Notes: generated from the sequence alone by a model not told the origin. A stretch of 64,000 nucleotides of DNA from Alphaproteobacteria bacterium (GCA_018830285.1 JAHJSB010000012.1:11433-75432); one strand, 5' to 3'; positions 21,203 to 48,753 are shown, counted from the first letter of the stretch. Numbers and translations: made by a program.

Positions 21203-21462
21203 TCATTGCCCCGAAAACTGCCAATCAGACGAGCATACGGTGTGTGCAGGCTGGCTGGCAAACGGAGACTACGGTGCCTGCTGCAACCGGGAAAATGCCC
21301 CGAGACCCCATGTATTTGCAAGAAAACTTGACGTAAACGTGTAGTGTTCGGGGCGAAAACTGCAATCGGCGGGCTTATCTAGACGCCAGACAGGCCTGTT
21401 CAGCCTTCATTTAGGAAAACTGGCGCAATCCTCGCATTGAAATCTGGATGGTAAATACTTCG

Positions 21463-23289
21463 ATGTCACAACGGCTTGCCCGCTTCACCACAGCAGCCGG
21501 GGCCGCACTCACGCACCCGGCCACGGGCGTATGCCTGCTGGGGGCCGTGACGGCTTGTGCCGGCTTTCCCGGAAGTGGCAATGACGCGATATCCACAGGG
21601 CGTCAGGTGCCCGTCGAATTGTCAGGCGTCCCTGCGGATCTGGACGCCAAGGCAAAGGCTGTCCTCGAGAGCGATGATACGCCTGCCCGCAGTGTGCTGG
21701 AGGCGCGGCGCAAGGCCAGTTCGTCCGCAGATACGCTGGAAGAATTCCTGGCGTCGGAGGGCTATCTCGCGGCCGACGTGTCACCTGAACTGATCGAATC
21801 GGTCGAGAAGAAACCGCGCCTGGATGTCTACCCCGGCGAAATGTTCAAGGTGGCCTCCGTCGCCCTGGCGCTGGACACAGACGTAAGCGACAAGCTGCAG
21901 GCGGCGCTCGAGGAAGACCGCAAGTCCCTTGCCATAGGCGCACCGGCGCGGACACCCGACATCGAATCGCTGGAAGTAAAATTTCTCGGAACACTTCGCC
22001 AGGGTGGCCATGCGTTCGCCGAAAGCCGCGGGATCGACGTGCTGGCCTCGCGCAAGGACAGGAATGTTGAACTGACTTACGCGCTGGCACCCGGGCCGTT
22101 CGTTCGACTTGGCGACATGGTCGTGCTGGAATCGGGCGCGCGCAAGGTCGAAACAATCTGCGCCCTTCGGACATGGACACCAGGAGACGCCTACACTCCT
22201 GACAAGATCGACCAGTTGCGATTGCGCTTGCGCAGCAGCGGCCTGTTCGACGGCATAGGCGTAGAAGTCTCAAGCACGCCAGACGAAAATGGATATTATC
22301 CGGTCCAACTCGCGCTTTCAGACGCCAAACGTCGATCCGTCGGCGCTGGCGTTACCGCCTCGACTACTGATGGGGTCGGCGCAGACGCATACTGGGAACG
22401 CAGAAATGTCACAGGCCACGGTGACACGTTCCGTGTGCAGGGCGAAGTGGCGACCGTCGCGCGCGACCTGACCGCAAAATATACGAGGCCGAACATCGGC
22501 CGCTACGGTCGCACGCTCACGGCCGAAGCCGGCATTCGCGCCGAAGAGACCGACGCCTACGACTTGCAGGGCATCAAGGTGGGCGCAGCGCTCTCGCAAC
22601 CGTTCAACAAGAACTTCACCCTGTCTGCCGGCGCGTCGGTCGATGCCACGCGAACGAAGGAGCGACGGCTCAGAGCCTTGTTGGACCCGCGCGAACTCTA
22701 CACGCTTTCATTTCCGCTTGCCGCAACCTATTCGACGGTCAAGCAACCGCTCGACCCGCAATCGGGCCAGCGCGCCTTTCTCGGTGTCGAACCCGGCATG
22801 TCGGTGGGCGACTCGACGGCGGGCTACACGCGCATGCTTTTGACCGGCTCCACTTACCACAAGATTGCGGATGGGCCGTTCGTCGCCGCCGTGCGTGGTG
22901 AATTCGGCGCCTTTCTTGGTTCCAACGCCGTTCCGATAGACCGCCTGTTCTTCGCGGGCGGTGGTGGGTCGGTGCGCGGCTTCGAATACCAGAGCCTGTC
23001 GCCGCGCGACGCCACAGGCGCCCTGATTGGCGGTCGAAGTCTTTTCGACGTTTCGGCTGAACTACGCTGGCGGCGCAGTGACAAGCTTGGCTATGTGCTG
23101 TTCGTTGACAGCGGCGCGGCGGCCGACAGCGCCGACGAAGTCTTCAACGACATGCGCACTGCCATTGGCTTTGGTTTCCGGTATTATCCGGGTTTCGGTC
23201 CGATCCGCATTGATATTGCGACTCCGGTCGACAGGCGCGACGGGGAAGACCCGGTCCAGTTTTACGTGTCGATCGGGCAGTCATTCTGA
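21463..23289 (+). CDS. tamA: Autotransporter assembly outer-membrane protein (Omp85 family)
   Basis: POTRA-like N-terminal half, GGGGSVRGFEYQSL, C-terminal beta signal FYVSIGQSF; TGATG-coupled to tamB. Start is 21448 or 21463. Confidence 0.88.
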   Translation: MSQRLARFTTAAGAALTHPATGVCLLGAVTACAGFPGSGNDAISTGRQVPVELSGVPADLDAKAKAVLESDDTPARSVLEARRKASSSADTLEEFLASEGYLAADVSPELIESVEKKPRLDVYPGEMFKVASVALALDTDVSDKLQAALEEDRKSLAIGAPARTPDIESLEVKFLGTLRQGGHAFAESRGIDVLASRKDRNVELTYALAPGPFVRLGDMVVLESGARKVETICALRTWTPGDAYTPDKIDQLRLRLRSSGLFDGIGVEVSSTPDENGYYPVQLALSDAKRRSVGAGVTASTTDGVGADAYWERRNVTGHGDTFRVQGEVATVARDLTAKYTRPNIGRYGRTLTAEAGIRAEETDAYDLQGIKVGAALSQPFNKNFTLSAGASVDATRTKERRLRALLDPRELYTLSFPLAATYSTVKQPLDPQSGQRAFLGVEPGMSVGDSTAGYTRMLLTGSTYHKIADGPFVAAVRGEFGAFLGSNAVPIDRLFFAGGGGSVRGFEYQSLSPRDATGALIGGRSLFDVSAELRWRRSDKLGYVLFVDSGAAADSADEVFNDMRTAIGFGFRYYPGFGPIRIDIATPVDRRDGEDPVQFYVSIGQSF

Positions 23290-26200
23290 TGGCCTTCTTC
23301 CAACCATCCGTCAATTTCATCCGCCGTCGGCCTTTTTCGTCGGCAGGTGCGGGGATTATCGTCTTCCTGCTCATGGCCGTCATGGGCGTGCGCCTCTGGA
23401 TCAACAGTGATGGCGGCCGCGCCTTTGTCCTGTCGCAAATCAACGGTCGGACAGTCGGCAGCCTGGGAACAATAACGGCATCCGGCCTGACGGGCGACCC
23501 GCTAAAGCGCATGCATATCGACAGGCTATCGATCGCCGATACCGAGGGCACATGGCTTGACAGCAGCGACCTCCGCCTGAAATGGACACCGCGCGCGCTC
23601 CTGTCGCGCAAAGTGGAACTCAATCTTGCCAGTGCTGGCGAAATAGCAATCCTGCGTCGCCCTGAGACAACGCCAAGCGAAGCGTCCGGCGGAAGCAACT
23701 GGAGTGTCGCGCTCGACGACCTGAACATTGGCAAGCTCTCGCTCGCTGAAGGTGTCGCTGGGCCAGCTGCCGCATTCAGCGTGACGGGCGCGTTTTCCAG
23801 CGGGCGCGACGCAATCGTCAAAGCCAAGCTGGACATTGCACCGCTGGAAGGCCTTGGCGACCGATTCAGGATCAATGCCCAGCGGGACGCGGCCGGCCAG
23901 TTCAACCTGGATGCCGAGGGCGAGGCCCCCGCCGGCGGCACGTTCGCGACACTGTTGAAACTCGCAGAAGGGCAGAGCGCCAACCTGAATGCCTCGGTCG
24001 ACGGCACGCTGGACGAAGGCGATGGCTATTTCCTGCTAAAGGTCTCAGGCGAGGATGCGGCGTCGATGACTGCAAAGATCGTCGCTGGACGGCTGACCGC
24101 GAACGCTGATCTCGATGCCACCGCCCTGCCCTTCCCAGGCACGTTGCAGCAATTGCTCGGCGCAAACGCGCGTTTTGTCCTGGGTGCCGACATCGAAAAG
24201 CACCTGGCGGCGTTCGATCTGTCCGCGAGCATGGCGTCGGGTACGCTGGCGGCCAAAGGTGAGGCGAACATTGACACGAAGTCACTGGATGGTCCCGCCG
24301 CAATCAAGCTGGATTTCACGGGTCTCTCCGACCTGACCGGGATGGCAGCCGACCTCTCGCTCGACGGAATAATCGAGATAAACGACGATGTGCCAACCTA
24401 CGCAGGCGCCGCGACCCTCACCGCGCATGACGGGGCCGACCTCTCCTTCACCAGGCTATCGGGGCCCGTTACGGTCTCGCTGAAGCCTCAGCAGATACCG
24501 TTCAAAGCCGATCTCATCGGTGAAGGCGTCCTGTCGGACAATCAAAGCCTTTCCGGCTGGATCGGACGTCAACCGCATCTGGTGGCGAGTGGTGTGTACG
24601 CGCGCGATACTGGAATCGTTACCCTTGCTCCCTCCGTGCTTGATCTGCCCGAGGGCAAAGTTTCGGCCTCCGGCACATTGAGCCCGAAGGCGCGCACGCT
24701 GGATTTGCGTGGCACGATAGACCAAGCCCTTCACAGCTTGCCGGGCGGGTTCGGCGGACGGACGTCTGGAACATTTCGCGCGCACGGTACGCTTAACAAG
24801 CTGCAGATTGAGACGATCCTGGCAGGTGCCGGGTTTTCGGGACTGCCGGACACGATACAGCCCCTGATCGGTGTAGCGCCGACAGTAAATGCGTCCCTCG
24901 CTATTGATGGTAAAACGATCAGCATCACGAAAATGAAACTGGTGGGCGCCGGCGTTCAGTTCGAAGGCGGAGGCCTGTACCGCATTGGCGATGCCAGCAC
25001 GTTGCGCTTCGACTTTATGCAAACCGAACCGCTCGACATCAGCGGGAACAGGTTTGACCTCCACGCTGGTACGGTCAGTCTTTCGGGGGCCGCCAGCGCG
25101 CTCGAGATAGGTGTCGCGTCAACAGGTGGCGTTTTTGAAATCGCCTCTCGACGCGTCGAACAAGTCGCCGCGACGACCACGCTCGGCATTAGCGGCGGCC
25201 GTGTATCAGGACCGCTGGCCGTGATCGGTAAAGTGGCGGGCGAAACGCTGGACCTGTCAGCTGATCTCGTGCGCGCCGATGAAGGCACCCTGATCGAAAA
25301 CCTGAAGGGCACATATGGCCCGCTTGGAATTACAGGCCGAGCCGAACTCAGTCCGGCCGGCGATCTTGTCGTTCTGGTGAATGCCGAAGGCGACGGCCTG
25401 AAGACCGAAGCCATACAAATCGCCAGCCTTCGCGCCACTGTCAGCATCGTGAAAGAAGGCCAGGACCCAATGTCGATCGTGGCCCATGCTGATGGTAGCG
25501 GCGCGAAACTGCCATCGGCCTTCCAACTCGATAGCTTCACGGCAGACATCAAGAACAACAAGGACGGCTACGATTTCAAGGCCAACCTGAAGAGCGTCCA
25601 TCCCTCCCGCCCGTTCGATTTTGCGGTTTCGGGACAAGCCGACCTGTCGGGCGCATCGCCCAATGGCACGTTCAACGTGTCGGGGTCCGCTCTTGGCAAG
25701 CCGCTCAGCACACGGGAGCCTGCTTACTGGAGTCTCGGCGAGACGCCCGAACTGAACGGTCGGCTTTCGATTCTCGGTGGCGAGGTGAAGGCCGAGCTTT
25801 CCGGCACGGGTGAAGCGGCGCTGCTGGTTGTCGATATCCAAGCCGTCGACTTCGGCGCCCTGTTCGCCATTGCCAATCTCGGTGAGGTCGATGCGCGCCT
25901 CAACGGCCACGGCGAGTTTCGGCCTGTCGGCCTTTCACCGTCCGGGTCCTTTGCCTTCTCGGCCACCAGCCCGATTCCCGATCTCGACACGTCGCTTTCG
26001 CTTGACCTGACCGGCCGTCTTGATGCCAGCACACTGAAGGTCAATGCGAGGAGCAATTACGGCAAGGACCTGGTCCTCGTTGCAGACCTCGCGTTGCCCA
26101 TCAAGCCGTCTGCCGAATCCCTCGCCCGTCTGGACCGAACGCAATCGATGACCGGACGCGCCACTCTGAACGGCGACTTGGGTGCTTTACATACGGCTGC

Positions 26201-27395
26201 ACTAGCCTATGGCCACGACATTGGCGGTCGGATCGATGCGCGGGCGACTGTGTCAGGATCGCTTTCCGAGCCCGTCTATGAAGCGAATGCGGATGTCATC
26301 GGTGGGATTTACGAATTCGGTACGACGGGACTCAAACTGACCGACGTCGCCCTGAAGGCCGGCCTTGCCGACAAGAAAATATCCCTCACCGGATCCGGCC
26401 AGAGCGCTGGAAGCGGATCAGTGGCACTGGACGGCACGCTCGGACAGGATGCCGGGCAGCTAAATGCCAAGCTGACGCGCCTGCTTGTCTACGAACGCGA
26501 CGGGGATATGGCGCGCCTTAGCGGCAATGTGACATTCTCCGAAGATCACAGCGGACGCCTCGTCTCAGGTACGTTGACTGTCGACGAAGCGCGCGTATCG
26601 CTCGACAATCTTCCGTCATCGGGCCCGAAGGCCATTGATGTCCGCTGGAGTGACGGCGATGAACCGACCAACATGCCGAGCAAGCTGCGTCAATCCCTGA
26701 ACCTCGATATCGACATCGACGCGGCGCGGCGCGTGTTCGTCACCGGACGGGGACTCGACAGCGAGTGGGCCCTTGATCTCACGGCGACGGGGACCGTATC
26801 GGACGCAAACCTGTCGGGCCAGGCAACCATGGTGCGCGGCGACCTCGATCTTGCCGGACGTCCCTTCGTCTTCGATACTGGAAAGATAACCTTTGACGGC
26901 CCGATCGACACCGCTCGGATCGCCGTTGACGCCGCCCGGTCGGTCAACGGGTTCGTGGTACGCGTCCAGGTTTCAGGCAAACCGACCAATCCTGTGTTCG
27001 AATTGTCGAGCACGCCCGACCTGCCTCAGGATGAGATCCTGTCCCGACTGCTGTTCGGTCGCTCGTCGATCGACCTGTCCCCCGTCGAAGCCGCGCAACT
27101 CGCCTCTTCAATAGCCCGCCTCAGCGGTCGCAGAGTCGGATTCGACCCGGCAGCCGAACTGCAGGCGGTTCTGGGTGTCGACCGCCTGTCGATCAGATCG
27201 AACGACGCCGGAAATGCGGAGCTTGGTGTGGGGCAGTACCTGGCTGATGATGTCTACCTACAACTGAATGCTGCCGGAGCAGACGGCAGTTCTGTCAAGG
27301 TCGAATGGGAACCCGCAGACCAAATCTCCGTGACGTCGGAAACCACGTCGACCGGCGAGAACAAGCTCTCCATAAGGTGGAAAAAAGACTACTAG
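23289..27395 (+). CDS. tamB: Translocation/assembly module TamB domain protein
   Basis: 1368 aa; N-terminal anchor, Gly-rich beta repeats, C-terminal VTGRGLDSEW...LPQDEILSRLLFG...GQYL...SIRWKKDY. Confidence 0.9.
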   Translation: MAFFQPSVNFIRRRPFSSAGAGIIVFLLMAVMGVRLWINSDGGRAFVLSQINGRTVGSLGTITASGLTGDPLKRMHIDRLSIADTEGTWLDSSDLRLKWTPRALLSRKVELNLASAGEIAILRRPETTPSEASGGSNWSVALDDLNIGKLSLAEGVAGPAAAFSVTGAFSSGRDAIVKAKLDIAPLEGLGDRFRINAQRDAAGQFNLDAEGEAPAGGTFATLLKLAEGQSANLNASVDGTLDEGDGYFLLKVSGEDAASMTAKIVAGRLTANADLDATALPFPGTLQQLLGANARFVLGADIEKHLAAFDLSASMASGTLAAKGEANIDTKSLDGPAAIKLDFTGLSDLTGMAADLSLDGIIEINDDVPTYAGAATLTAHDGADLSFTRLSGPVTVSLKPQQIPFKADLIGEGVLSDNQSLSGWIGRQPHLVASGVYARDTGIVTLAPSVLDLPEGKVSASGTLSPKARTLDLRGTIDQALHSLPGGFGGRTSGTFRAHGTLNKLQIETILAGAGFSGLPDTIQPLIGVAPTVNASLAIDGKTISITKMKLVGAGVQFEGGGLYRIGDASTLRFDFMQTEPLDISGNRFDLHAGTVSLSGAASALEIGVASTGGVFEIASRRVEQVAATTTLGISGGRVSGPLAVIGKVAGETLDLSADLVRADEGTLIENLKGTYGPLGITGRAELSPAGDLVVLVNAEGDGLKTEAIQIASLRATVSIVKEGQDPMSIVAHADGSGAKLPSAFQLDSFTADIKNNKDGYDFKANLKSVHPSRPFDFAVSGQADLSGASPNGTFNVSGSALGKPLSTREPAYWSLGETPELNGRLSILGGEVKAELSGTGEAALLVVDIQAVDFGALFAIANLGEVDARLNGHGEFRPVGLSPSGSFAFSATSPIPDLDTSLSLDLTGRLDASTLKVNARSNYGKDLVLVADLALPIKPSAESLARLDRTQSMTGRATLNGDLGALHTAALAYGHDIGGRIDARATVSGSLSEPVYEANADVIGGIYEFGTTGLKLTDVALKAGLADKKISLTGSGQSAGSGSVALDGTLGQDAGQLNAKLTRLLVYERDGDMARLSGNVTFSEDHSGRLVSGTLTVDEARVSLDNLPSSGPKAIDVRWSDGDEPTNMPSKLRQSLNLDIDIDAARRVFVTGRGLDSEWALDLTATGTVSDANLSGQATMVRGDLDLAGRPFVFDTGKITFDGPIDTARIAVDAARSVNGFVVRVQVSGKPTNPVFELSSTPDLPQDEILSRLLFGRSSIDLSPVEAAQLASSIARLSGRRVGFDPAAELQAVLGVDRLSIRSNDAGNAELGVGQYLADDVYLQLNAAGADGSSVKVEWEPADQISVTSETTSTGENKLSIRWKKDY

Positions 27396-29067: not shown

Positions 29068-29511
29068 TCATGCGGCGCGGCGTAGCGTGATAAATCCTGG
29101 CTCGACTATGACGGATTCGCACGTAATCTTGAGGACCCAGTCCCGAATACTTCCGGGCCCACCTAGACAAAGCCTGTGCTCGCGCCTGACAATCGGCAAC
29201 GGTCGTGCCGATACAGCCCCGAGGCGGCAAAATCCTCGCATGCACTGCGTTTCGCACCAGTTCCAGCGATCTTCCACCGTGGCGCATTTGAAGCCGTCAT
29301 GATCGAGCGGCTTACGCAGGATGAAGAGATCCCTGCCATCGACGATCAGGTGGGACACGGCAGTATCGAAATAGGTCGGCGCGCGACCGCCAAATGTCTC
29401 GGGGTCCGTCAACAGGCGAACGGCATCGACCTGTGCGCCCGCAATCACGCCCTTTGGCAACGGATTACGAGACATCGTCGCCAAGCGCGTGGGAATTTCC
29501 GGATAGAACAT
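29068..29511 (-). CDS. Hypothetical protein resembling the N-lobe of APH-like/AAA bifunctional kinases
   Basis: GGAG RBS. LLTDPETFGG...DTAVSHLIV...LRKPL...TVEDRWNWCE matches the recalled DP-TYGG...DTHISHVFL...KLKRAV...TLEKR---CE pattern. Confidence 0.5.
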   Translation of the reverse strand: MFYPEIPTRLATMSRNPLPKGVIAGAQVDAVRLLTDPETFGGRAPTYFDTAVSHLIVDGRDLFILRKPLDHDGFKCATVEDRWNWCETQCMRGFCRLGAVSARPLPIVRREHRLCLGGPGSIRDWVLKITCESVIVEPGFITLRRAA

Positions 29512-29736: not shown

Positions 29737-30957
29737 TCAGACTGACTGAGCATCCGCGTCCGGCTGATCCGGGACGGGCGACGTCCACTGGCCATGATTT
29801 TCCTGCAGCCACGCCATCACATCCTTGCCGGCAAGCGGTCTCGCAATCATGTAGCCCTGGGCGAAGGTCGCACCCGCCTTTCTGAAATAGTCCAGCTGCT
29901 CTTGCGTCTCCACACCTTCGGCCACCACCGACATATTCAGCAGTCGGGCAAGCTTCAGGCTCGTGGCAACCGCCAGGCGCGCGAAGCTGTCGGTCAGCAC
30001 ATCCTGAACAAAAATCAGATCGAGTTTCAGCTCGGAAAACGGGTAGAGTCGCAACTGTTCGAAACTCGTGGCGCCGGTGCCAAAATCGTCAACGCTCAGA
30101 CGGAACCCCTTGATTCTCAGACGGGAGAGCACCTCCAGGACGTCGGCCGAGTATTTGACGAACTGGTTTTCCGTCACTTCCAGCGTGACCATGTGCGGCG
30201 AAAGGCCAGTCTCGTCGAGCACCGACATGATGCGCTCCGGAAAGTTCTTGTCCAGGAGCAGGCTTGGACTGATATTGAACGCAAATCCGAGATCGAACCC
30301 GTCAGCGCGCCATGAGCGGGCCTGAAGTGCTACCTGTTCGATCTGGCGCAATGTCAGCTCAAGCATCATGCCGAACGATTCACTCGCCAGCAAATACCCA
30401 TATGCGCTTTGCAGGCCCGCGCCCGGCTGGGCGTACCTTGCGAGCACTTCAAAGTTGTTTATCTCACCTTTGACGAGATCAAGCTTCGGCTGGTAAACCG
30501 GCACGATCGCGTTTGCGTCCAGCGCCGCCCTCACCTCCTCCCGGGAGACTTCGATCATTTGCGCGGACGGCTGACTTGCCCCGAGCAAGATCAATTTCTG
30601 CAGCTTGGTTGCGTTGAGAGGCTTCTTCAGCGCCCCCAACATTCGGACACCCGCCAACCGGGCCATCGCGTCGACAGTCTCGATAACGGCCCGATTCTCG
30701 CTGCTGACGACGATCAGGGCTCCGGAGTAATGGCGGCTGCCAAGTTCGCGCAGCACCAGGACCCCGTCGATATTCGGCATGTTCAGGTCGCACAGGATAA
30801 GGTCGAACGCCTCGGGCCGGTCTGCGACCATCTGCAGACCTTCGGCGCCGTCCCGCGCGAGCACCACCTCGCCAGCGCCCAGTGCAAGCAACGTCTCTTC
30901 GGCGACCACGCGGAAAAGTGGATCATCGTCAATTACGAGAACGTTGCGAAGGACCAT
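29737..30957 (-). CDS. Response regulator with EAL domain (REC-EAL c-di-GMP phosphodiesterase)
   Basis: REC: IDDD, CDLNMP, KKP. EAL: YQPK, EVLAR, NIS, EVTE, DDFGTG, ELKLD, AEGVET, QGY. Confidence 0.95.
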   Translation of the reverse strand: MVLRNVLVIDDDPLFRVVAEETLLALGAGEVVLARDGAEGLQMVADRPEAFDLILCDLNMPNIDGVLVLRELGSRHYSGALIVVSSENRAVIETVDAMARLAGVRMLGALKKPLNATKLQKLILLGASQPSAQMIEVSREEVRAALDANAIVPVYQPKLDLVKGEINNFEVLARYAQPGAGLQSAYGYLLASESFGMMLELTLRQIEQVALQARSWRADGFDLGFAFNISPSLLLDKNFPERIMSVLDETGLSPHMVTLEVTENQFVKYSADVLEVLSRLRIKGFRLSVDDFGTGATSFEQLRLYPFSELKLDLIFVQDVLTDSFARLAVATSLKLARLLNMSVVAEGVETQEQLDYFRKAGATFAQGYMIARPLAGKDVMAWLQENHGQWTSPVPDQPDADAQSV

Positions 30958-31040
30958 AAACGCGAATGCCTGACTGTAAAAGCAGCACTAATTCGCATCA
31001 GGTCTTTACAACCCTATAATATGCTGCGGTTCAATTGCAG

Positions 31041-32375
31041 CTACTGCAGAAGGCGGACCGACGTATCCTGCTTGGGTCCGACACCGTCCGGAACCGGAAT
31101 GTCCGACGCATCATAATTGGTCTGGATGACGAGGTTGGGGCCGTTGTCCAACTCGAAAGTCTTGGCAATAATCACGGTATATTCGGACCTGTCAGCGACG
31201 GGTGAGTTTCCGTCGACGACCAATTTGTCATCAGGCAGGTAGATCGTGCCAACCAAGCGACGAGCGTTGTCGCTTTCGATCACGTGGCCCTTCTTGAGTT
31301 TTTTGCCCATCTTTGATGGCCTTTCCGGCGGGTTGGCAGGGTTCGCATAGAACAGCATGCCCGTCATGGCGCCGGACTTTGGCGCCGTCAGGTCGACGGT
31401 CGACTTGGCTTCAAAGTTGAGTTTGGTCTCGTCACCCGTCAGAAAGAATCCGACGTTTTCACCCGCCATCGAGCCACCATTGGACACCTCAAGCAGGCCA
31501 TCCTTGATAATATAGATGCCAGGCCGAAGTTCGACTTTCCCGCCATCGATGACGAGACCGCCACAATACGTGCCGGGGTCCAGTGTCTTCGTGACCACCG
31601 CCGGGGCGTTTTTCTTCCGGGATTTCCGCGCCTTGGTGTACTTCGCGCCCGCACCAGTCACGACGAAATCGTTCTCGTCGCACATCCCCACGCGGGGCAT
31701 CGGACGACCGGCAAGCGGGTCGCCGATTTGAGGCGCGTCCGTGACGGGTTGCTTCATCGTGTCTGTCGGGGCGCCTTTGAAACCGCCTGCAGAATAAAGA
31801 AAATCTGCCGTGACCTGGGCGGATTCCTTCACAACGATGGAATTCGTACTTTTCGAGTTGGAGTAAATTGCGCATTTGGCAGCTGTAATGCGTGCCCTCG
31901 AGGCCATATAGATCGTATTGCTGGCATCGCCCGACAGGCCGATCATGCAGATGTTGCCCGCTTCACCAGCCAATCGGGCTGTGGCGGATGCAGACAGCGA
32001 TTCTACTTTTGCCGCAGGTCCGGGAAAGAAGGTTTTTGCCGGCGCACGGACCGTGACGTCAACCGTTAGCGTGTCCAAATGCGCCTGCGCAATCGCGCTG
32101 ACATTCGGATTTTCGGCTGTCGCCGTGACGAATGCCTTTGCGGCTTCCTCGATGCGCTGGCCGTTATTGGCCGAGATTGCGAACTCGCGTGCCGCGGAGA
32201 GGGCCGCGTTGTCGGCGAGCACTTGCAGGGACTTCTTCTGTCCTTCGAGTGCCGACATATCGATGACCCCGCCAACAATGGCCGACAGCGCGCAAAAGGC
32301 CACAGCAGCGGGGACAACCACGTTGCCACCGGTGTCTAGGACGAATGAAATGACGCGCTGGAAAGGGGTATTCAT
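31041..32375 (-). CDS. TadG-like Flp pilus assembly/adhesin protein
   Basis: N-terminal Tad motif GGNV...GGVID...LQVLADNAALSAARE; Cys-containing beta-rich C-terminus (PGTYCGGL, PGIYII, VGTIYLP). Confidence 0.8.
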   Translation of the reverse strand: MNTPFQRVISFVLDTGGNVVVPAAVAFCALSAIVGGVIDMSALEGQKKSLQVLADNAALSAAREFAISANNGQRIEEAAKAFVTATAENPNVSAIAQAHLDTLTVDVTVRAPAKTFFPGPAAKVESLSASATARLAGEAGNICMIGLSGDASNTIYMASRARITAAKCAIYSNSKSTNSIVVKESAQVTADFLYSAGGFKGAPTDTMKQPVTDAPQIGDPLAGRPMPRVGMCDENDFVVTGAGAKYTKARKSRKKNAPAVVTKTLDPGTYCGGLVIDGGKVELRPGIYIIKDGLLEVSNGGSMAGENVGFFLTGDETKLNFEAKSTVDLTAPKSGAMTGMLFYANPANPPERPSKMGKKLKKGHVIESDNARRLVGTIYLPDDKLVVDGNSPVADRSEYTVIIAKTFELDNGPNLVIQTNYDASDIPVPDGVGPKQDTSVRLLQ

Positions 32376-32535
32376 ACTTGGGTACTCGACATTTTATGAT
32401 TTAGCTATCGTACTAACGTTACAGAAGCCCGCGCCAGATCGCTCAATTTTCATTGAATTTTTCACCCGGATTTGAGCCTTTCTTGGTTAATTTCTGCGAC
32501 GTTGCAGGCTGTTCCATTGAGAAGTAGCCGCCACC

Positions 32536-35223
32536 TTGAACACTTCGCCCCCAACTGTGCCGATCCACCGCTCCATCCGGCTCCGTCTGACGCTGCTTGT
32601 GGTGGTCCTGATCATCACGACCGTGATGACGATTTCGGGCTTCATGGCCCGGAAGGGCTTCGAGCGCGAAGTCGCCAGCCAGCAGAGCCTGCTCGCAGGT
32701 GCTGCATCCGCCTATGCCGCGGCCATCGCGGACCCCGTCGCGGGCAATGACAAGGCCGCAGCAGTCGCGATGCTGCGCGGCGTGCGTGACCTGCCGGGCA
32801 TCGTCCAGACAGACATCACCTTGGCCAACGGCCGCGTGTTCGCGCAGCTGGGCAGCGGTGCAATCCTGCTCGGCCGGGACGATGCCAGTGCGCTGACCGC
32901 ACGCGACCTGTTTTCCTCACGCCAGATGCATGTCGAAATTCCGATCCTTAATGGCGGCGAACAGGTCGGCAAGCTCGGCATGCTGGCCGACATTTCCACG
33001 CTTCGCAAAGCTGTGTTCGACAGCCTCCGGGCCACCGCCATCATGTCGCTGGTGGCCATCATTGCCGGGATCGCCCTGGCACAATGGCCCATTACCCACC
33101 TGACGCGCCCCTTGCGCCAGCTGACAGCAATGATGGCTGCGTTTCGCGACGATGAAGCGGCGTCGATCGAACGGATCCAGGGTGGACGCGACGAGACCGG
33201 CGTCCTCGCCGAAACCTTCAACACAATGATCGGCAGCATTGTCGAACGCGACGCCAGGCTCGCACGCCATCTCGCGTCGCTCGAGCAAACCGTCGAGGAG
33301 CGCACGCACAGCCTGCGGCTCGCGCGCGATGAGGCCGAAGCCGCCAACGCAGCGAAGTCCAACTTCCTCGCAACAATGAGCCATGAAATCCGCACCCCCA
33401 TGAACGGCATGATGGTGATGGCCGAGATGCTGACCTCCGCCGACCTCTCGCCGCGTCATCGTCGGTATGCCGACATTATTTCCAGGTCAGGCAAGAGCCT
33501 GCTGACGATCATCAACGATATTCTCGACCTGTCCAAGATCGAGTCCGGCAAGATGGACCTTGAGATACTGCCCGTCTCGCTTGATTCCCTCGTAGCCGAT
33601 GTCGCCAGCCTGTTCTGGGAGCGCGCCCGTGAAAAGGGCCTGCAGCTGGCGACCTATGTCTCACCAGATGTACCCGTCTCGATCATGGCAGACCCCACCC
33701 GCCTGAACCAGATCGTCACGAACCTCGTCAATAATGCGTTGAAGTTTACGGAATCAGGCGGAGTCACAATCCGTGTCGGTGCGCGCCCCTGCCCTGGCAC
33801 GAAATCGGTGACGATCAGCATCGACGTAGAAGATTCCGGCATCGGCATCCCCGAGGACAAGATCGGCGCCGTGTTCGAAGCGTTTTCCCAGGCCGATCAG
33901 TCTACGACCCGGAAATATGGCGGCACCGGCCTCGGCCTTTCGATCTGCAGCCGACTGGCTGACGCGATGGGCGGAACGATAACGGTGGAGAGCGAGCCCG
34001 GACGCGGCAGCGTGTTCCGGCTTGAAGTCGTCCTGCCGGTTGATCAGGCCGCGCCAGCCCTTGCGTGGGTCGGTTTGTCGGCCATGGTCAGTGTCGGAGC
34101 GGGGCAAGTCCAGGACACGCTTGAGCGCAGCCTGCGCGACTTTGGCTGTACGATTGTGTCGGGTGACGCCGACTTCATGATCGCGACATCGACCACGCTG
34201 CAGGCCAATGCGGCCCCAGCCGGCGTGCCATGCATCGTTCTTTCCGATATCGGCGATACGATGGCCGACGCGCTCCTGCGCGACGGTGCAGCCGTCGATG
34301 CGCTCGCGAATCCGGTCTCGCGCGCCGAGCTGGCGGACCTCCTCGCCCGCGTCGCATCAGGAGACTATCTCGGCACTGCCGTGCGCGATTCCAGGACAAC
34401 ACACGCCGAAACGCCGTCATTCGAAGGCAAGTCGATCCTTGCTGTCGATGATAATCCGGTCAACCGCGAAGTGCTTCGCGAGACGCTTGGCACGCTCAGG
34501 ATTGCGGTGACGTTCGCGGTGAATGGCCAGGAAGCGGTTGAAAAGGCAGCAGCGGGGTCCTTTGACATCATTCTCATGGACGGTTCGATGCCGGTCATGG
34601 GTGGTATCGAAGCGACACAGCTGATCCGGGCGCACGAGGCCAGGACCGGGTCGCCGCGCACCCGCCTCCTCGCGCTGACGGCGCAGGTCAGCGGCGATGA
34701 TGCCAGCACCTGGCGCAGCGCTGGCGCAGATGGATACCTGCCGAAGCCGTTCACGATGGAGCGCCTGATAGCCGCCCTGTCCGATGCGGACTCGCCGGAA
34801 GCGGCGATTCAGGCGGGCCAGCCTGGTCCGGCGGACGCCACCGGCGAGCTCCTCGCCATGGACACGCTTGCCAGCATGGATGCGCTCGGGTCGCAATCGG
34901 GCCGGAATGTCCGCCAGCGCATCTGGACCATGTTCCACGCAGAGGCGCCGCGCGCCTGCACCGGACTGGCCGCGCTGATCAACTCGGGTGCAGCCAACCC
35001 GGAAATCGTTCGTCAAGCGCACGCACTCAAATCGATGGCGCTGAGCGCTGGCGCCAAGGAGGTCGCGCAGATCTGCCAATCGCTTGAGCGGGACGCAGGC
35101 AACGGCCTGCGCCAAGACGGCTTGGCCGAGACGGTGGTCTCTCTGGCATCTGCTCTGGAGGCAACCTACAACGCGATGGGATTCCACGCAGACGACGAGG
35201 AACCTGCCCGGTCGGCCTCCTGA
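32536..35223 (+). CDS. Hybrid sensor histidine kinase (periplasmic sensor-HAMP-HisKA-HATPase-REC-Hpt)
   Basis: Two TMs, HAMP ([12 protein letters not shown]), [36 protein letters not shown] (VDDN...MDGSMP...KP), Hpt AHALKS; TTG start. Confidence 0.95.
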
Positions 35224-39688: not shown

Positions 39689-41356
39689 TCATGACAGAAT
39701 GCCGGGTAAGTTGAGTTTGTGCGCCGCAGCGCATTCCAGAGCGGACTCGTATCCAGCATCTGCATGACGCATGACACCTGTCGCCGGATCGTTCCAGAGA
39801 ACGCGTTCAATCCGCCTGTCCGCTTCCGCCGTCCCGTCGCAGCAAATCACCATGCCGGAGTGCTGGGAGAACCCCATTCCGACACCGCCGCCATGATGAA
39901 GCGACACCCAGGTCGCGCCCGATGCCGTATTTAGCAACGCATTGAGGAGAGGCCAGTCAGACACGGCATCGGAACCGTCCTTCATCGCTTCTGTCTCGCG
40001 ATTTGGCGAGGCCACGGACCCTGAATCCAGATGATCACGCCCGATCACGATTGGTGCTGACAGTTCTCCGGTTCGCACCATCTCGTTGAATGCCAACCCC
40101 AATTTGTCGCGCACTCCGAGGCCAACCCAGCATATGCGAGCTGGTAATCCCTGGAACGGAATCCTCTCTCGTGCCATATCAAGCCAATTGTGCAGGTGGG
40201 GATCGTCAATCAATTCACGAACTTTCGCATCTGTCTTGTAGATGTCCTCCGGATCGCCCGACAGGGCACACCAGCGAAACGGCCCGATCCCACGACAAAA
40301 AAGAGGCCTGATATAGGCCGGAACGAAGCCTGGAAACGCGAAGGCATCCTCCAGCCCTTCGTCCTTTGCCACCTGGCGAATGTTGTTCCCGTAATCCAGC
40401 GTCGGTACGCCGGCATTCCAGAAGTCCACCATCGCCTTGACCTGGACTTTCATACTGGCCCGCGCAGCTTGCTCGACCCGCTTTGGCTCGGTCACCTGCG
40501 CTTCGCGCCACTCACTAACAGTCCAATCCTGTGGCAAGTAACCGTGCAACGGATCATGCGCGCTTGTCTGGTCAGTCACGATGTCCGGTCGCACGCCCCG
40601 CGCGTAGATTTCGGGGAAAATATCCGCCGCATTGCCGATCAGCGCCACAGATTTCGCTTCGCCCGCCGCTGTCCAGCTGGCAATCATCTCCAGCGCTTCA
40701 TCCAAGCTCGATGTCTTCGCATCGACATATCGCGTCCGCAGCCGGAAATCCGCCCGCGTCTCATCGCACTCGACAGCAAGGCAGCAGGCTCCAGCCATCA
40801 CGGCTGCGAGCGGCTGAGCCCCGCCCATGCCGCCCAATCCGCCCGTCAAGATCCACCGACCCTTGAGATCTCCGCCATAATGCAGGCGCCCGGCCTCGAC
40901 GAAAGTTTCATACGTGCCCTGAACAATTCCCTGAGACCCTATATATATCCACGATCCGGCGGTCATCTGCCCATACATGGCGAGACCCTTTTTATCGAGC
41001 TCGTTGAAATGATCCCAATTGGCCCAGTGAGGGACAAGATTGGAGTTGGCGATCAGCACGCGCGGCGCATCGACATGCGTACGGAACACGCCAACCGGTT
41101 TACCCGACTGGACGAGAAGTGTCTCGTCGGCCTCAAGCGCTTTGAGGCTGGCAACAATCTTGTCGAAATCTGCCCATGTCCGCGCTGCCCGTCCGATGCC
41201 GCCATAGACAACCAGATCATGCGGGTTTTCGGCGACGTCCGGATGCAAGTTGTTCATCAGCATGCGCATAGGAGCTTCGGTCAGCCAGCTCTTCGCGGTA
41301 ATCTCGCTTCCTGTCGCGGGATAGATGTCTCTCATGTTGTGGCGGGGGTCGATCAT
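39689..41356 (-). CDS. hutU: Urocanate hydratase
   Basis: [48 protein letters not shown]; ATGA-coupled to hutG. Confidence 0.98.
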
Positions 41357-42153
41357 GATCTGCCTCTCAGTTGACATGCTGCGCGCTCGATTGTCTCGAG
41401 AACCACGGCAAGATGTATGCGGACGCGCCCTGCCTTTACCTCGTCATACTCAAAGGGAAGGGCTTCTGTCCTGAGGTAGGTCGACTGCGCCAACTCCATC
41501 TGGATGGCATGCACGCCTGTCGATGGTCGACCATACTCACGTGTCGTCCAGCCGCCACGGAAGCGACCATTGACGATCATGGAATAATCACGCGCCTGTT
41601 GGCACGCTTCGGATACAGCACGCTCAAGAGCAGGATCGCAGGTCGCTCCATTATTCGTGCCGATATTGAAATCCGGAAGGGTCCCTTCGAAAAGGTATGG
41701 CGCCTGTGAACGGATCGAATGACAATCGTACAGGACGGCAACGCCATGCTTTGCCTTCACCCGCGCAAGTTCTGCGCGCAGGGCCGCATGGTAAGTCGCG
41801 TGCCAGCTTATACGCCGTGATTCTATCTCTTCTTCGTCAGGCGGATCGCACCACAGCGCATGTCCATCGAAGTCTGTCATCGGCACGAGCCCGGTCGTGT
41901 TTTGATCCGGGTAAAGGCTCGCGCCAGAGGGGTCGCGGTTCGCGTCAACGACATAGCGATGGAAATTTGCCTTCACCATCGTGCCCCCCGGCAGAAGCCC
42001 GTCATAAAGACGATCAACATGCCAATCCGCATCTGCGAGGCTTTGGCCCAGCGGAGTCAGGCGGTCGAAAACATCGGCGGGAACATAGGTACCGCTGTGC
42101 GGAACACCGAGCACGACCGGCCCGTCACCGCGCTGGACGTTTACGGGATTCAT
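41353..42153 (-). CDS. hutG: N-formylglutamate deformylase
   Basis: [50 protein letters not shown]. Confidence 0.96.
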
Positions 42154-43688
42154 GCAGCGATCTCGTCAATGGATTCAGGCAAACCCGCCGCAGCCGAAAA
42201 GTCTCCGTTCGCAACCATGATAGCGACCTGTTCCAGATCGGGCGCCATGTATCGGTCTGTCGTGAGGCGGCTCACCTTCGCGCGCATCGCCGCAAGTACA
42301 AGTTTGAGCACCGGGCTCGTCTCAAGCGGCGCGCGAAACTCGACACCCTGCGCGGCGCAGAGAAATTCCACGGCGATGATCATGCCGAGATTCCGGTTCA
42401 TGCGTTGAAGCCGCCGCGCACCATGCGCAGCCATCGAAACATGATCTTCCTGATTGGCGGACGTAGGTGTGGAATCTGTCGAGCAGGGATTAGCCAGATG
42501 CTTGTTCTCGCTCATCAAAGCAGCTGATGTCACTTCCGCAATCATCATCCCGGAATTCAGGCCCGGCTCTGGAGTCAGGAAGGGCGGCAGATCAAAGGAA
42601 AGAGTCGGGTCAACCATCAGAGCGACGCGGCGCTGCGAGATGGCACCAATTTCGGCGATTGCAAGCGCGATCTGGTCGGCGGCGAAGGCGACGGGCTCGG
42701 CATGAAAGTTCCCACCCGAAACGATCTGCCCCGTTTCGACAAGGACGAGCGGATTGTCCGATACTGCATTGGCTTCAATTTCGAGTGTCTGTCCGGCGAA
42801 ATCGAGCAGATCGAGCGCCGCGCCGGTAACTTGTGGCTGGCATCGGATACAATATGGATCCTGAACTCTCGCATCGTCGCTTCGATGGCTTTCACGGATT
42901 TGCGAGCCATCCAATAGCTGACGCATGCCGCGCGCGATGCGAATTTGTCCCTTGTGTCCGCGCAAGGCGTGTATCTCGGCCAGCAAGGGCGCTGTCGATG
43001 CCATGACCGCATCCGTCGAAAGCGCCGCTGAAACCACACATTGCAACGCGGTGCGCTTGGCAGCGAACAAACCCGCCAAGGCACAAGCAGTCGAAAACTG
43101 GGTTCCGTTGATGAGTCCGAGGCCTTCTTTCGGACCAAGCGTGACGGGGCTGAGGCCCACGTTTGAAAGAGCCTGCGCCGATGGCAGGCGCTGATCGTCC
43201 AGCCAGGCTTCGCCTTCGCCGATCATCGCCGCAGCCATGTGCGCCAACGGCGCCAGATCACCCGACGCGCCAACAGACCCTTGGTCAGGAATGACCGGGA
43301 TCACTCCCTTTTCGAGCATCGCCTCTATCATGGCGATGGTATGCCAGGACACACCAGACGCGCCGCGCCCCAACGACAGAAGCTTCAGCGACATCATCAA
43401 TCGGGTGGTCGGAACATCGAGCGCCTGGCCTACGCCGCAGCAATGCGACAGCACAAGATTGCGCTGCAACACCTCGGTATCTTCCGGCCTGATCTTGATA
43501 CTGGCCAGCTTTCCGAATCCGGTATTCACCCCGTACACGGCCCTCGCACCCGAGGCGGCTTCAGCCACGATGGCGGCCGCCCTGTCAATTGCAGGACGTG
43601 CCGTCTCCGACAGCCTCACGGAAGCACTCGTGCGCCATACAGATTCAAGTTGGGACAGCGTCGCAGAGCCGGGCATGAGAACGATCAT
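42150..43688 (-). CDS. hutH: Histidine ammonia-lyase
   Basis: [11 protein letters not shown]-forming [33 protein letters not shown]. Confidence 0.98.
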
Positions 43689-44881
43689 CACACCGCTCCT
43701 GCGAACACACGCTTGTGCAGGGGGTTGAACCCGAGCCTGTAGGCGAGCTCTGCCGGATGCTCGACGTCCCAAATTGCAAGGTCGGCGCGTGCACCGGCGT
43801 ATAGCTTGCCGCAATCGCTCAGCCCCAGCGCCTGCGCACCATGCAATGTCATACCGGCCAGCGCCTCCTCGGGCGTCATTCTGAACAGGGTGCACGCCAT
43901 GTTCATGACCAGCAGGGGTGATGTCATGGGCGACGACCCCGGATTGCAGTCAGTTGCCAACGCCATTCCCACGCCGTGCTTCCGGAACGTATCGATCGGC
44001 GGAAGCTTCGTCTCCCGCAGGAAATAGAACGCACCCGGAAGCAGGACCGCCACCATTCCGGCGCGCGCCATGGCGATAACGTCCACTTCCGTGGCATATT
44101 CCAAATGGTCACTGGACAAGGCGCCAAATTCGGCTGCCAGCCGCGTGCCTCCGAGGTTTGATAATTGTTCGGCGTGCAGCTTCACTGGCAATCCGAGCGT
44201 TTTTGCAGCTTCGAAAACCTTCCGGATCTGCTCTTTGCTGAATGCAATTCCTTCGCAGAACCCGTCGACGGCGTCCACAAGCCCGGCGTCTGCCGCAACA
44301 GCCAGCGCGGGCAGGCAGACTTCATCGACATAGGCGTCCGGTCGCCCCGCATATTCGCCGGGGATTGCATGCGCGCCCAGAAAGCTTGTCACCACCCGGA
44401 CGGACCTGTCGCGCGCGATACGCCGGGCAACACGCAGCATCTTGATTTCCGAGTCGATATTGAGTCCGTATCCTGACTTTATTTCAATCGTTGTCACGCC
44501 TTCGGCGATTAGGGCGTCGACGCGCGACAGCGCGCTGCCAAGCAGGTCTTCTTCACTCGCCTCTCGCGTCGCCGAGACGGTTGAATTGATGCCGCCCCCG
44601 GATCGCGCCACCTCTTCGTAGGTGGCTCCGCCAAGCCGGAGCTCAAACTCCCTGGCACGGTTACCGGCGTGAACGATGTGCGTATGGCAATCGACCAGGC
44701 CGGGAGTGATCAGACGACCGCAGAGATCCATGCTTTCCCCGTCGCGTGCTTGCCGGGGAACGTCTTCCATCCGCCCGATCCACTGGATGCACGCTCCGAC
44801 CATCCAGATTGCACCATCCGGCACCAGACCATAGGGCGCATTTGCACCAAAGGTAGCCAGATTTGCGTGAGTCAGAAGCAT
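43688..44881 (-). CDS. hutI: Imidazolonepropionase
   Basis: [42 protein letters not shown]. Confidence 0.97.
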
Positions 44882-44915
44882 GATTCTCTCATTGCCAATT
44901 CCGGACTAATTTTTT

Positions 44916-44931
44916 ATATGTCTGCACATAT
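44916..44931. promoter_or_regulatory. HutC-type operator palindrome
   Basis: ATATGT-CTGC-ACATAT in the AT-rich divergent hutI/hutF gap; TGT-N4-ACA core resembles known HutC sites. Confidence 0.7.
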
Positions 44932-44954
44932 TAATGAGTCAAGGAAGTTCGCCA

Positions 44955-46319
44955 ATGACTGTCATTTCGGCGCGCACAGCCCTTCTTGAGGACGGCTGGG
45001 CCAAAGATGTCCGCTTTGAAATCGACGCTTCCGGCAAGATCGCATCTGTGCTCAGCGGACAGAAGCCCGAAGGCCAAACGGCAGGGATCCTGCTCCCTGC
45101 ACCTGCCAACGCTCACTCCCATGCGTTTCAGCGGGCCATGGCAGGCCTGACGGAACGCAGAGGCCACGACCCCAGCGATTCCTTCTGGACGTGGCGTCAG
45201 TTGATGTTCCGTTTCCTGGACAGGCTGACCCCGGATCATGTCCAGGGTATCGCCGCCTTCGTGCAAATGGAGATGCTGGAAGCAGGGTATGCTGCAAACG
45301 TGGAGTTTCATTATCTTCATCACCAGCCGGGCGGAGCCGTCTATGACAAACTGTCCGAAATGTCTGACAGGATAGTGGCCGCTGCTGCACAGACCGGCAT
45401 AGGATTGACGCTTCTTCCGGTTCACTATGAATATGGAGGCTGCGACGGGCGCCCGCTCGGACCAGGACAAATCCGTTTCGGAAATGACTTCCAGCGTTTC
45501 GCAAAGCTGTATGACCAGGCGCAGCAGACGATGCAATACTTGCCCAGCGATAGCCGTCTTGGCGTTGCCCCTCACAGCCTTCGCGCCGTCGCGGCCCGGG
45601 ACCTCAGGTCGGCAAGTGACCTTGCAGGCGACGGCCCCCTTCACATGCACTTGTCCGAACAGCAGGCCGAAGTGGACGAAGTCCTGGCGTTTTATGGCGC
45701 ACGGCCTGTCAGCGTTTTCCTCGATCACTGCGATGCAGGCCCGCATTGGTGCCTGATCCACTGCATCCAGATGAATGAGGTTGAATCAGACCGGCTTGCG
45801 CGCTCCGGATCCGTTGCGGGTGTTTGTCCCGTGACGGAAGCGAGTCTTGGAGATGGCATTTTTGGCGCAACGGCTTGGCTTGGCTCAGGTGGTGCCCTCG
45901 CAATCGGTTCGGATTCCAATATCCGCATCTCGCTAACCGAAGAGTTGCGGGCGCTGGAATATTCACAACGGCTGCGTGACCATTCGCGCGCCTCGCTTGC
46001 CACGCACGACCGTTCGACGGGCAGGCGTTTGTTCGAAGCAGTCAACAAGGGCGGCGCGCTGGCCTCGGGACGCAATAGTGCATGCATTTCAGAGGGATGC
46101 CTGGCTGACTTTGTCGCGATTGACGACAGCCATATTGATCTCGCAGGACGGACCGGTGACACTCTTCTCGACACCTATATCTTTGCAGGTGATGATAGTC
46201 TCGTCACCGACGTATGGTCCGCAGGCCGTCACATGGTACGCGAGGGAAAGCACATTGCTCGTGATGCCATTGCGGGTCGTTACCGAGCCATCATGCATGA
46301 ACTCGGAGACGCATTGTGA
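44955..46319 (+). CDS. hutF: Formimidoylglutamate deiminase
   Basis: NAHSHAFQRAMAGLTE, VEFHYLHH, APHSLRA, HMHLSEQ, IGSDSN. Confidence 0.97.
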   Translation: MTVISARTALLEDGWAKDVRFEIDASGKIASVLSGQKPEGQTAGILLPAPANAHSHAFQRAMAGLTERRGHDPSDSFWTWRQLMFRFLDRLTPDHVQGIAAFVQMEMLEAGYAANVEFHYLHHQPGGAVYDKLSEMSDRIVAAAAQTGIGLTLLPVHYEYGGCDGRPLGPGQIRFGNDFQRFAKLYDQAQQTMQYLPSDSRLGVAPHSLRAVAARDLRSASDLAGDGPLHMHLSEQQAEVDEVLAFYGARPVSVFLDHCDAGPHWCLIHCIQMNEVESDRLARSGSVAGVCPVTEASLGDGIFGATAWLGSGGALAIGSDSNIRISLTEELRALEYSQRLRDHSRASLATHDRSTGRRLFEAVNKGGALASGRNSACISEGCLADFVAIDDSHIDLAGRTGDTLLDTYIFAGDDSLVTDVWSAGRHMVREGKHIARDAIAGRYRAIMHELGDAL

Positions 46320-48643: not shown

Positions 48644-48674
48644 AGTAACCCTCTTGATCTGAATCTCAGTTTAC

Positions 48675-48699
48675 AACTCGCCACACCCGAAAAGGTTGC
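48675..48699 (-). promoter_or_regulatory. EcfG/SigT-type promoter for phyR
   Basis: Minus strand GCAAC-N16-AGTT, a variant of GGAAC-N16-CGTT. Confidence 0.55.
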
Positions 48700-48728
48700 G
48701 TGCGCTGCAAAATTAATTGTTTTCTGGT

Positions 48729-48753
48729 GGAACCAATACTGTTGCCCGCTGTT
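48729..48753 (+). promoter_or_regulatory. EcfG/SigT-type promoter for nepR-ecfG
   Basis: GGAAC-N16-TGTT, 58 bp upstream of the nepR ATG. Confidence 0.75.

Follow-up and report, generated by a model that had tools for sequence, protein, structure and literature searches.

In Pseudomonas aeruginosa, the RocS1-RocR and PvrS-PvrR systems combine an unorthodox sensor kinase with a response regulator made up of a receiver and an EAL phosphodiesterase domain (REC-EAL), and they are genetically linked to genes for a surface fibre, the Cup fimbriae; RocS1 takes its input through solute-binding and PAS domains. Pilins are also sensed by kinases in this species, as known for PilA and PilS and for the minor pilins and PilY1 with FimS-AlgR. 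PvrR acts as a dispersal phosphodiesterase (PMC3842833), and YfiN (TpbB) of the YfiBNR system has a periplasmic CHASE8 domain under the control of YfiR, itself a periplasmic protein (PMC8085984). In Caulobacter, the membrane prepilin has been proposed to signal to the PleC-PleD pathway of cyclic di-GMP (c-di-GMP), as summarised in a preprint (bioRxiv 10.1101/2025.01.14.633045). Moreover, another study describes CpaL of this genus as a minor-pilin-like module joined to a von Willebrand factor A (vWA) domain, calls it a TadG ortholog, reports that Tad pili contribute to surface sensing and that the orphan cpaL gene regulates it, CpaL being a negative regulator, and states that the mechanosensory elements of the Tad pilus and of CpaL surface sensing remain unknown (PMC12607857). 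Here, a locus of three genes is analysed in a stretch of 64,000 nucleotides from an alphaproteobacterium (GCA_018830285.1, JAHJSB010000012.1:11433-75432; 'the window' means this whole stretch), which encodes a hybrid histidine kinase, a TadG-like protein and a REC-EAL protein. We consider it quite likely that the locus is a real and conserved phosphorelay-to-phosphodiesterase unit tied to a TadG-class protein, and give a little short of an even chance to the narrower proposal that the TadG-class protein acts at the input of the kinase.

The two signalling proteins share with RocS1-RocR and PvrS-PvrR the arrangement of a kinase with HisKA, HATPase, REC and Hpt domains and a separate REC-EAL partner. 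The initial annotation had described a hybrid kinase with intact H-box, receiver Asp and Hpt His that is divergent from the TadG-like and REC-EAL genes, and this is borne out by the open reading frames (ORFs) and by residues invariant in 45–46 homologs. Pfam recognises HAMP, HisKA (7e-22), HATPase_c (3e-31), Response_reg (1e-23) and Hpt (2e-09) in the kinase, and CHASE8 below the cut-off. Its motifs are intact, namely H283, N399/N400, G1 (DxGxG, 433–437), G2 (GxGLG, 463), D682/T715/K737 of the receiver and H829 of Hpt, and these functional residues do not vary in 45–46 of 46 homologs. The REC-EAL protein matches Response_reg (3.9e-17) and EAL (1.3e-56) and is collinear with RocR (3SY8), which is its best solved relative over the full length (E 4e-50 over residues 5–379; the catalytic numbering is that of RocR minus 5). 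In this alignment all ten catalytic residues of RocR are found (E170, R174, N228, E260, E263, D290, D291, K311, E347 and Q367), among them the E, N, E, DD, K, E and Q positions that the annotation had named for the EAL domain, and they are invariant in 45/45 homologs. Furthermore, D57 of the receiver aligns with the Asp in 'CDLQM' of RocR, and D11, D12, D57, S85 and K112 are all invariant in the 45 homologs. The best NCBIfam model for the REC-EAL protein is PvrR (NF052596; residues 4–388 against 4–393 of 398), which together with the RocR alignment upholds the proposed analogy with the Pseudomonas systems; since the score of 237.1 bits is under the cut-off of 580, the protein is not a PvrR ortholog. 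Likewise, the kinase reaches none of the NCBIfam cut-offs of the named equivalogs BarA, TorS, ArcB, RcsC and LuxQ, the best matches being TorS (382.7 bits, cut-off 676.5) and BarA (382.2 bits, cut-off 890). Judged from their sequences, the two proteins thus extend known families and are orthologs of none of the named proteins. As a separate observation, the REC-EAL gene is N-terminally truncated or frameshifted in one metagenome-assembled genome (L002, ~9493–10566), and on a plasmid of the isolate Rhizobium sp. CC-CFT758 (L081, 5807–6980) it is annotated as separate coding sequences for a response regulator and an EAL protein; both cases could be decay or assembly errors.

The main differences from RocS1-RocR and PvrS-PvrR are that the sensor in the window is a CHASE8-like domain with HAMP, that the module has no DNA-binding regulator such as RocA1/RcsB, and that the fibre gene is a single gene of the TadG class instead of a chaperone-usher operon, all in an alphaproteobacterial setting. 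The TadG-like gene is located 83 bp upstream of the REC-EAL gene on the same strand, and the two are probably one operon, while the kinase gene is divergent from the TadG-like gene across an AT-rich spacer of 160 bp.

Evidence that these genes belong together comes from other genomes. Loci with a TadG-like homolog were collected by a scan of one genome per species and compared by tblastn with the window proteins, the locus ORFs were clustered all-against-all, and the single kinase domains were traced with hidden Markov models built from the loci, which were used instead of the window kinase N-terminus because that query found one close homolog only. The resulting set contains 80 loci with a TadG-like homolog, one genome per species, among which 70 have enough upstream sequence to be informative. 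Among the 70 informative loci, 61 have the sensor domain next to the TadG-like gene; 53 of these contain an EAL domain as well, and 43 a REC-EAL protein that is encoded separately. Only three families are widely kept around the TadG-like gene, namely the TadG-like protein itself (79 loci), REC-EAL (50) and the kinase (50), and the remaining clustered ORFs are shadow ORFs or lineage-specific. The module spans the Hyphomonadaceae and several families of the Hyphomicrobiales; with HK standing for the histidine kinase, its order is HK<- ->TadG->REC-EAL in Hyphomonadaceae and HK<- ->REC-EAL->TadG in Rhizobiaceae. The co-occurrence of HK-Hpt, TadG-like and REC-EAL genes elsewhere, for which a synteny search had been suggested, is therefore found. 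Because the same sensor is adjacent in so many loci of different species, the trio is not a chance neighbourhood. Moreover, in a mirror-tree comparison of 38 loci the distances of all domains are correlated (raw r 0.86–0.96), which suggests that the module is inherited as a unit. Considering this correlation, the spread over families and the fusion variants given below, a purely accidental adjacency of three unrelated genes has a practically negligible probability.

The transmission and output parts of the module differ among the loci. In 7–8 loci, the sensor and HAMP are fused straight to GGDEF-EAL in a gene that is still divergent from the TadG-like gene, for example the 684-residue sensor-HAMP-GGDEF-EAL protein of Aestuariivirga type in L042 (5721–7775(−)), and likewise those in L044, L046, L047, L055, L066 and L076. 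In L049 and L065, the whole kinase-REC-Hpt protein is fused to EAL, again divergent from the TadG-like gene. And in a Henriciella-type group, an extra GGDEF protein of 292 residues is encoded directly downstream of REC-EAL (L012, 10547–11425(+), and 7 other loci), by which this lineage has a cyclase and phosphodiesterase pair in the module. These fusion and replacement variants suggest that the sensor and the TadG-like protein are the constant pair, that the transmission module is interchangeable, and that turnover of c-di-GMP is the usual output. In addition, since the core has no DNA-binding regulator, the relay is unlikely to control transcription of the TadG-like gene, which speaks for a physical or functional connection on the input side.

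The third protein resembles CpaL of Caulobacter crescentus and TadG of Aggregatibacter in having an N-terminal hydrophobic helix with a pilin-like module and a large insert outside the cytoplasm, and it has a predicted beta-strand at the extreme C-terminus, as they do. Its only Pfam match is the Tad N-terminal family PF13400 (residues 17–63, 2.6e-08, 34.5 bits, cut-off 22.3), and it has no match in NCBIfam. A transmembrane (TM) scan places the TM helix at residues ~19–38. The AlphaFold2 (AF2) model (pLDDT 80.7) has helices at 17–64 and 72–86, strands at 93–136, then a beta-solenoid, and as its last element the extreme C-terminal strand VRLL at residues 439–442. The terminal x-R/Q-L-hydrophobic-x motif is kept superfamily-wide, with endings such as ...VRLLQ*, ...ALIE*, ...QITE* and ...RLVR* (the asterisk marks the stop); the extreme C-terminal strand of TadG/CpaL is required for pilus assembly (PMC13533445). 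Four Cys residues are invariant (C143, C168, C232 and C271), which fits an extracytoplasmic location. The family is large: homologs of uniform length number in the hundreds, and 12,354 representative clusters at 50% identity are found at E<=1e-3, or 1,829 at E<=1e-30. No Pfam model spans residues 64–444, a head of about 380 residues, and it has no solved or significantly similar structure: a profile search of the PDB sequences gave no match, and no Foldseek match of the model in PDB or BFVD had E<0.09, the weak top matches being the pilin ComZ and then ice-binding beta-helices, tapirin and tailspikes, which indicate a fold class only. The idea that the head is an enzyme, for example a lyase or a glycanase-like beta-helix, was also considered and set aside, as what is conserved superfamily-wide (Gly, Cys, Pro, DP-L/Y-A and one His) appears to serve the structure and D395/S397/Y399 are not kept in the homologs from tad loci.

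The assignment to the TadG class follows from homology to proteins of tad/cpa loci and from the placement of its relatives there. By hhalign, residues 6–413 align with proteins within such loci of S. meliloti and Paracoccus (99.5%, E 7e-23), and distant but full-length homologs are located near genes for prepilin peptidase, CpaB, a TadE-family protein, Flp, CpaF and TadB/C on plasmid pB of S. meliloti LMB1 (L082, 8938–10305), between a secretin gene and two TadE genes on a Paracoccus plasmid (L083, 3167–4666), in a tadG-tadE-tadF trio on a Bradyrhizobium plasmid (L085, 6932–8218), and straight after a GGDEF gene beside a cluster for an RTX adhesin and type 1 secretion system in Aminobacter (L086, 7007–8230). 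The suggested link with Tad pili gains support from this homology and from the orphan cpaL precedent (PMC12607857). CpaL is comparable in a further respect, as the cpaL gene, too, is not part of the pilus cluster and has an influence on surface sensing (PMC12607857; PMC13533445). On the other hand, the protein in the window has a four-Cys beta-solenoid as its head, without vWA and its MIDAS motif (an adhesion site that depends on a metal ion), is shorter (~440 against ~600 residues) and lacks the G/A-X4-F/E motif, and its gene is hard-wired to a kinase and a phosphodiesterase, whereas no such neighbours of cpaL are mentioned in the available portion of PMC12607857.

The two parts of the TadG-like protein have diverged differently from those of the close relatives L001 and L002, labelled Hyphomonas sp. 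and uncultured alphaproteobacterium. Over codons 1–145 the amino acid identity is 89% and the synonymous divergence (dS) 0.27–0.28, within a background of dS 0.21–0.52 for the neighbouring genes, while over codons 146–444 the identity is 60–80% and dS 1.3–3.4 (saturated against L001, at 60% identity). Because dS jumps there, a recombination breakpoint is placed near codon 145, the head being a different, old allele. A Lys-rich insertion of 21 residues in the head (residues 241–261; 31593–31655) is shared by the window and P0001 only. The sensor domain of the kinase, in contrast, is 100% identical to that of L001 in amino acid sequence (nonsynonymous divergence, dN, 0; dS 0.23), and no other part of the kinase is as constrained. 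This pattern, in which N-module and sensor are conserved and the head is exchanged, fits a conserved interface for assembly or signalling and a variable, exposed head; and the exchange of the head beside an identical sensor argues against the head as the ligand of the sensor. The intergenic spacer is ~91% identical to that of L001, with a nearly invariant kinase-proximal part of 100 bp, and contains the palindrome TCAATtttcATTGA at 32443–32456. This palindrome (TCAAT-N4-ATTGA) is genus-specific and not kept in distant loci. A CtrA box was found in 0/35 intergenic regions between kinase and TadG-like genes, which also had no notable shared 8-mer, and a scan for sigma-70 promoters and terminators was uninformative.

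In the kinase, TM segments at residues 20–38 and 164–182 flank a periplasmic domain of ~125 residues (TM scan), so that the TM-sensor-TM-HAMP topology expected for CHASE8 sensors is present. The window sensor scores 21.7 bits against CHASE8 (PF17152), under the Pfam cut-off of 27; among the homologous sensors, 22/58 give a CHASE8 match at E<=0.01 (best 5.9e-08) and 3/58 one to sCache_3_2, and a database protein of 95% identity (P0121) has PF17152 precomputed. The YfiBNR system is similar in that a CHASE8-HAMP membrane sensor controls c-di-GMP and is regulated by an adjacently encoded periplasmic protein (PMC8085984), and YfiN is closer still to the fused sensor-HAMP-GGDEF-EAL variants such as that in L042. 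Since YfiR controls YfiN, a protein partner for a CHASE8-type domain has a precedent. The module in the window differs in its output, which is a phosphorelay to a phosphodiesterase and not a directly fused cyclase, and in its putative partner, a membrane-anchored TadG-like protein instead of the small soluble YfiR; furthermore, it has no YfiB lipoprotein, and its CHASE8 match is sub-cut-off. The concept of a membrane pilin pool read by a histidine kinase with c-di-GMP as the output is shared with PilA-PleC/PleD of Caulobacter, as summarised in the preprint and in PMC8846402. Unlike here, none of the kinase genes of the PilA-PleC/PleD, PilS and FimS systems is known to have its dedicated place beside a gene of the TadG class, and the output in Caulobacter raises c-di-GMP through a cyclase, while that of the window is a phosphodiesterase.

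Based on these comparisons, the following route is our preferred explanation. The kinase with its two TM segments would take the input through the CHASE8-like periplasmic domain and autophosphorylate at H283, from which the phosphoryl group would pass to D682, to H829 of Hpt and then to D57 of the REC-EAL protein, the probable phosphotransfer partner encoded in the same locus. Phosphorylation would activate the EAL domain to hydrolyse c-di-GMP, as in RocS1/RocR and PvrS/PvrR. The third protein would be a minor-pilin-like member of the TadG/CpaL class with an N-in helix, a pilin-like module, a disulfide-bonded beta-solenoid head in place of vWA, and the terminal beta-strand typical of TadG/CpaL. 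Its conserved N-module may be read by the sensor and TM region of the kinase, be it in the pool of the inner membrane or as the protein cycles through a Tad pilus whose genes are located elsewhere, and its variable head may touch the outside world. In this direction of information flow, the status of the pilus or of the surface would be coupled to a fall of c-di-GMP, and the input role of the TadG-like protein would be analogous to the pilin-PleC/PleD signalling proposed in Caulobacter and to the regulatory role of CpaL. A self-contained relay, a net fall of c-di-GMP and a place of the protein at the pilus tip, as the initial annotation had it, would likewise be putative. In its most specific form, which we offer tentatively, the CHASE8-like kinase would serve specifically to read the state of a TadG-class tip or minor pilin (membrane pool versus assembled or loaded). 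It would then be a hard-wired link between the Tad pilus and c-di-GMP, such as is being looked for in CpaL-dependent surface sensing, and the recombining, variable beta-solenoid head would set the surface or ligand that is sensed.

Several observations weigh against the proposal that the TadG-like protein acts as a pilus component at the kinase input. No vWA/MIDAS domain was matched by Pfam in the protein, whose model is a beta-solenoid, and the prepilin-peptidase motif G/A-X4-F/E, as described for CpaL (PMC12607857), is absent, with G18-NVVV-P23 at this position and G-N-x-A-V-P as the family consensus, for which reason the protein may stay membrane-anchored. No other tad/cpa gene was found by Pfam among the window ORFs of at least 140 residues over the whole 64 kb, nor a Flp/TadE-type prepilin motif in a six-frame scan, in agreement with the initial annotation, and none is among the lineage-conserved neighbours of the 80 loci or around the sensor-less paralogs; the association with a pilus is thus made by homology only. 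Nine informative loci have TadG-like paralogs without the sensor, a few loci carry REC-HK or plain REC proteins in place of REC-EAL, and the partial correlations (partial Mantel) of the TadG-like protein with the sensor are small and unspecific (r 0.17–0.24). Moreover, a small molecule could be all that the Cache-like sensor binds. In loop 6 of the EAL domain (DDFGTGATS), the window and 34/45 homologs have Ala in place of the Tyr of the RocR-type motif DFG(T/A)GYSS, and Tyr is found in 9/45.

Some of these points would fit better if the TadG-like protein had no part in the input. The kinase would then sense an unrelated small-molecule or envelope cue and the relay would lower c-di-GMP, while the TadG-like adhesin or pilus subunit would be cargo, co-transcribed with the phosphodiesterase from a shared divergent promoter. 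The membership of CHASE8 in the Cache-like clan of ligand-binding domains (PMC8846402), the 83-bp distance between the TadG-like and REC-EAL genes on one strand, the missing specific signal between sensor and TadG-like protein in the mirror-tree analysis, and the variable head, which fits an exposed adhesin, all agree with this, and so does the TadG of B. diazoefficiens, reported as an adhesin. It accounts less well for the fusion variants, where the REC-EAL operon partner is gone and the TadG-like gene is still divergent beside the sensor gene, for the constancy of the sensor-TadG pair while the output module varies, and for a core without a transcription factor that could couple expression to the signal. 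On balance, co-expressed cargo is a possible explanation, though not a likely one. Alternatively, the TadG-like protein might never enter a Tad pilus and act as a bitopic inner-membrane or periplasmic regulator of the CHASE8-like domain, as YfiR does for YfiN, for which YfiR-YfiN itself provides the precedent of a protein ligand. The lack of the E/F(+5) prepilin-peptidase motif, the invariant Cys residues, which fit a periplasmic location, and the fact that the close TadG-like subfamily is always orphan relative to tad genes are consistent with such a role. But full-length homologs hold the TadG slot of real tad/cpa loci beside TadE/TadF genes, a predicted terminal strand of CpaL type is kept, and the head was recombined while the sensor stayed 100% identical, which speaks against binding between head and sensor, so that a pilus-independent accessory is rated as distinctly unlikely.

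The genes beyond the trio do not appear to belong to the module. The initial annotation had proposed a 7.8-kb attachment-control cassette including the flanking XRE, LysR and small-protein genes, and these do adjoin in the window and in L001/L002; however, L001 and L002, of the same genus, are syntenic over the whole region, including Tex and TamB, as expected of close relatives, while the XRE, LysR and small-protein (orf147) genes are absent from every locus beyond the genus, where the flanks are unrelated housekeeping genes. This larger cassette is accordingly given very little credence. The small-protein gene orf147 (29068–29511(−)) shows 93–95% identity in L001/L002 with dN/dS ~0.08–0.09 and no match in Pfam or NCBIfam; it is a real gene outside the conserved module. 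According to Pfam, the other window ORFs are housekeeping and regulatory genes, among them those for a P450, the glycinamide ribonucleotide (GAR) synthetase PurD, AcrB-type efflux, TamA/TamB, Tex, a CbpA-like DnaJ, the hut operon and the PhyR/EcfG stress locus. The TamA/TamB translocation-assembly pair (21448–27395) is directly upstream of the XRE gene. The histidine-utilisation (hut) cluster (39689–47029) is complete, with genes for urocanase, formylglutamate amidohydrolase, histidine ammonia-lyase, an imidazolonepropionase-like protein, HutF and a GntR regulator, and a general-stress-response locus of alphaproteobacterial type is located at 47849–51302. The window sequence itself occurs in metagenomes of groundwater, runoff and lakes (public runs, DNA only). 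The features are listed in Table 1.

Table 1. Coordinates of the features in the 64,000-nucleotide window (aa, amino acid residues).
Feature	Position	Strand	Basis or remark
REC-EAL response regulator, RocR-type c-di-GMP phosphodiesterase (predicted)	29737–30957	−	406 aa; Pfam and RocR alignment
EAL domain, aa 140–374	29836–30540	−	Pfam, RocR alignment
Receiver domain, aa 6–123, phospho-acceptor D57	30589–30942	−	also D11/D12, S85, K112
TadG-like (TadG-class pilin-like) gene	31041–32375	−	444 aa; Pfam, hhalign
TadG-like extracytoplasmic beta-solenoid head, aa 146–444	31044–31940	−	AF2 model
TadG-like N-terminal module, aa 1–145, pilin-like 'lollipop'	31941–32375	−	Tad TM helix, long helix, small beta-sheet
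Divergent intergenic (promoter) region, AT-rich, TadG-like/kinase	32376–32535		sequence
Unorthodox hybrid histidine kinase, TM1/CHASE8-like/TM2/HAMP/HisKA-HATPase/REC/Hpt	32536–35223	+	895 aa; Pfam, residues
CHASE8-like (Cache-clan) periplasmic sensor, aa 40–165	32653–33030	+	CHASE8 E 2.4e-4
HAMP, aa 188–236	33097–33243	+	Pfam
HisKA and HATPase_c core, aa 273–498, H283	33352–34029	+	Pfam, residues
Internal receiver, aa 634–748, D682	34435–34779	+	Pfam, residues
Hpt, aa 796–870, H829	34921–35145	+	Pfam, residues
PhyR	47849–48643	−	general-stress-response locus
Possible NepR, small ORF	48700–49002		general-stress-response locus
EcfG-type sigma factor	48995–49615	+	general-stress-response locus
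HisKA_2/HWE kinase	49599–51302	+	general-stress-response locus

The signalling logic of the module, a RocS1/RocR-like His-Asp-His-Asp relay to a phosphodiesterase, is already known. The part that seems to be undescribed is the conserved link between a TadG-class gene of non-vWA type, a CHASE8-type sensor and a c-di-GMP output, including the fusion variants; a full-text literature search found no paper on this module, in line with the novelty that had been claimed for it. If the TadG-like protein were co-expressed cargo only, the locus would be an ordinary RocR-like two-component phosphodiesterase system with a conserved adhesin neighbour. The analysis draws attention to a very large TadG-related family whose head domain has no Pfam model or solved structure, and to a TadG-class gene that stands beside a full sensor-relay-phosphodiesterase pathway, or a sensor-GGDEF-EAL fusion, in dozens of genomes. 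Should the TadG-like protein indeed provide the kinase input, this arrangement would connect a pilus protein with c-di-GMP by a genetically compact path that is open to direct testing, and the module may show how alphaproteobacteria link a protein of the Tad pilus to the choice of attaching or swimming.

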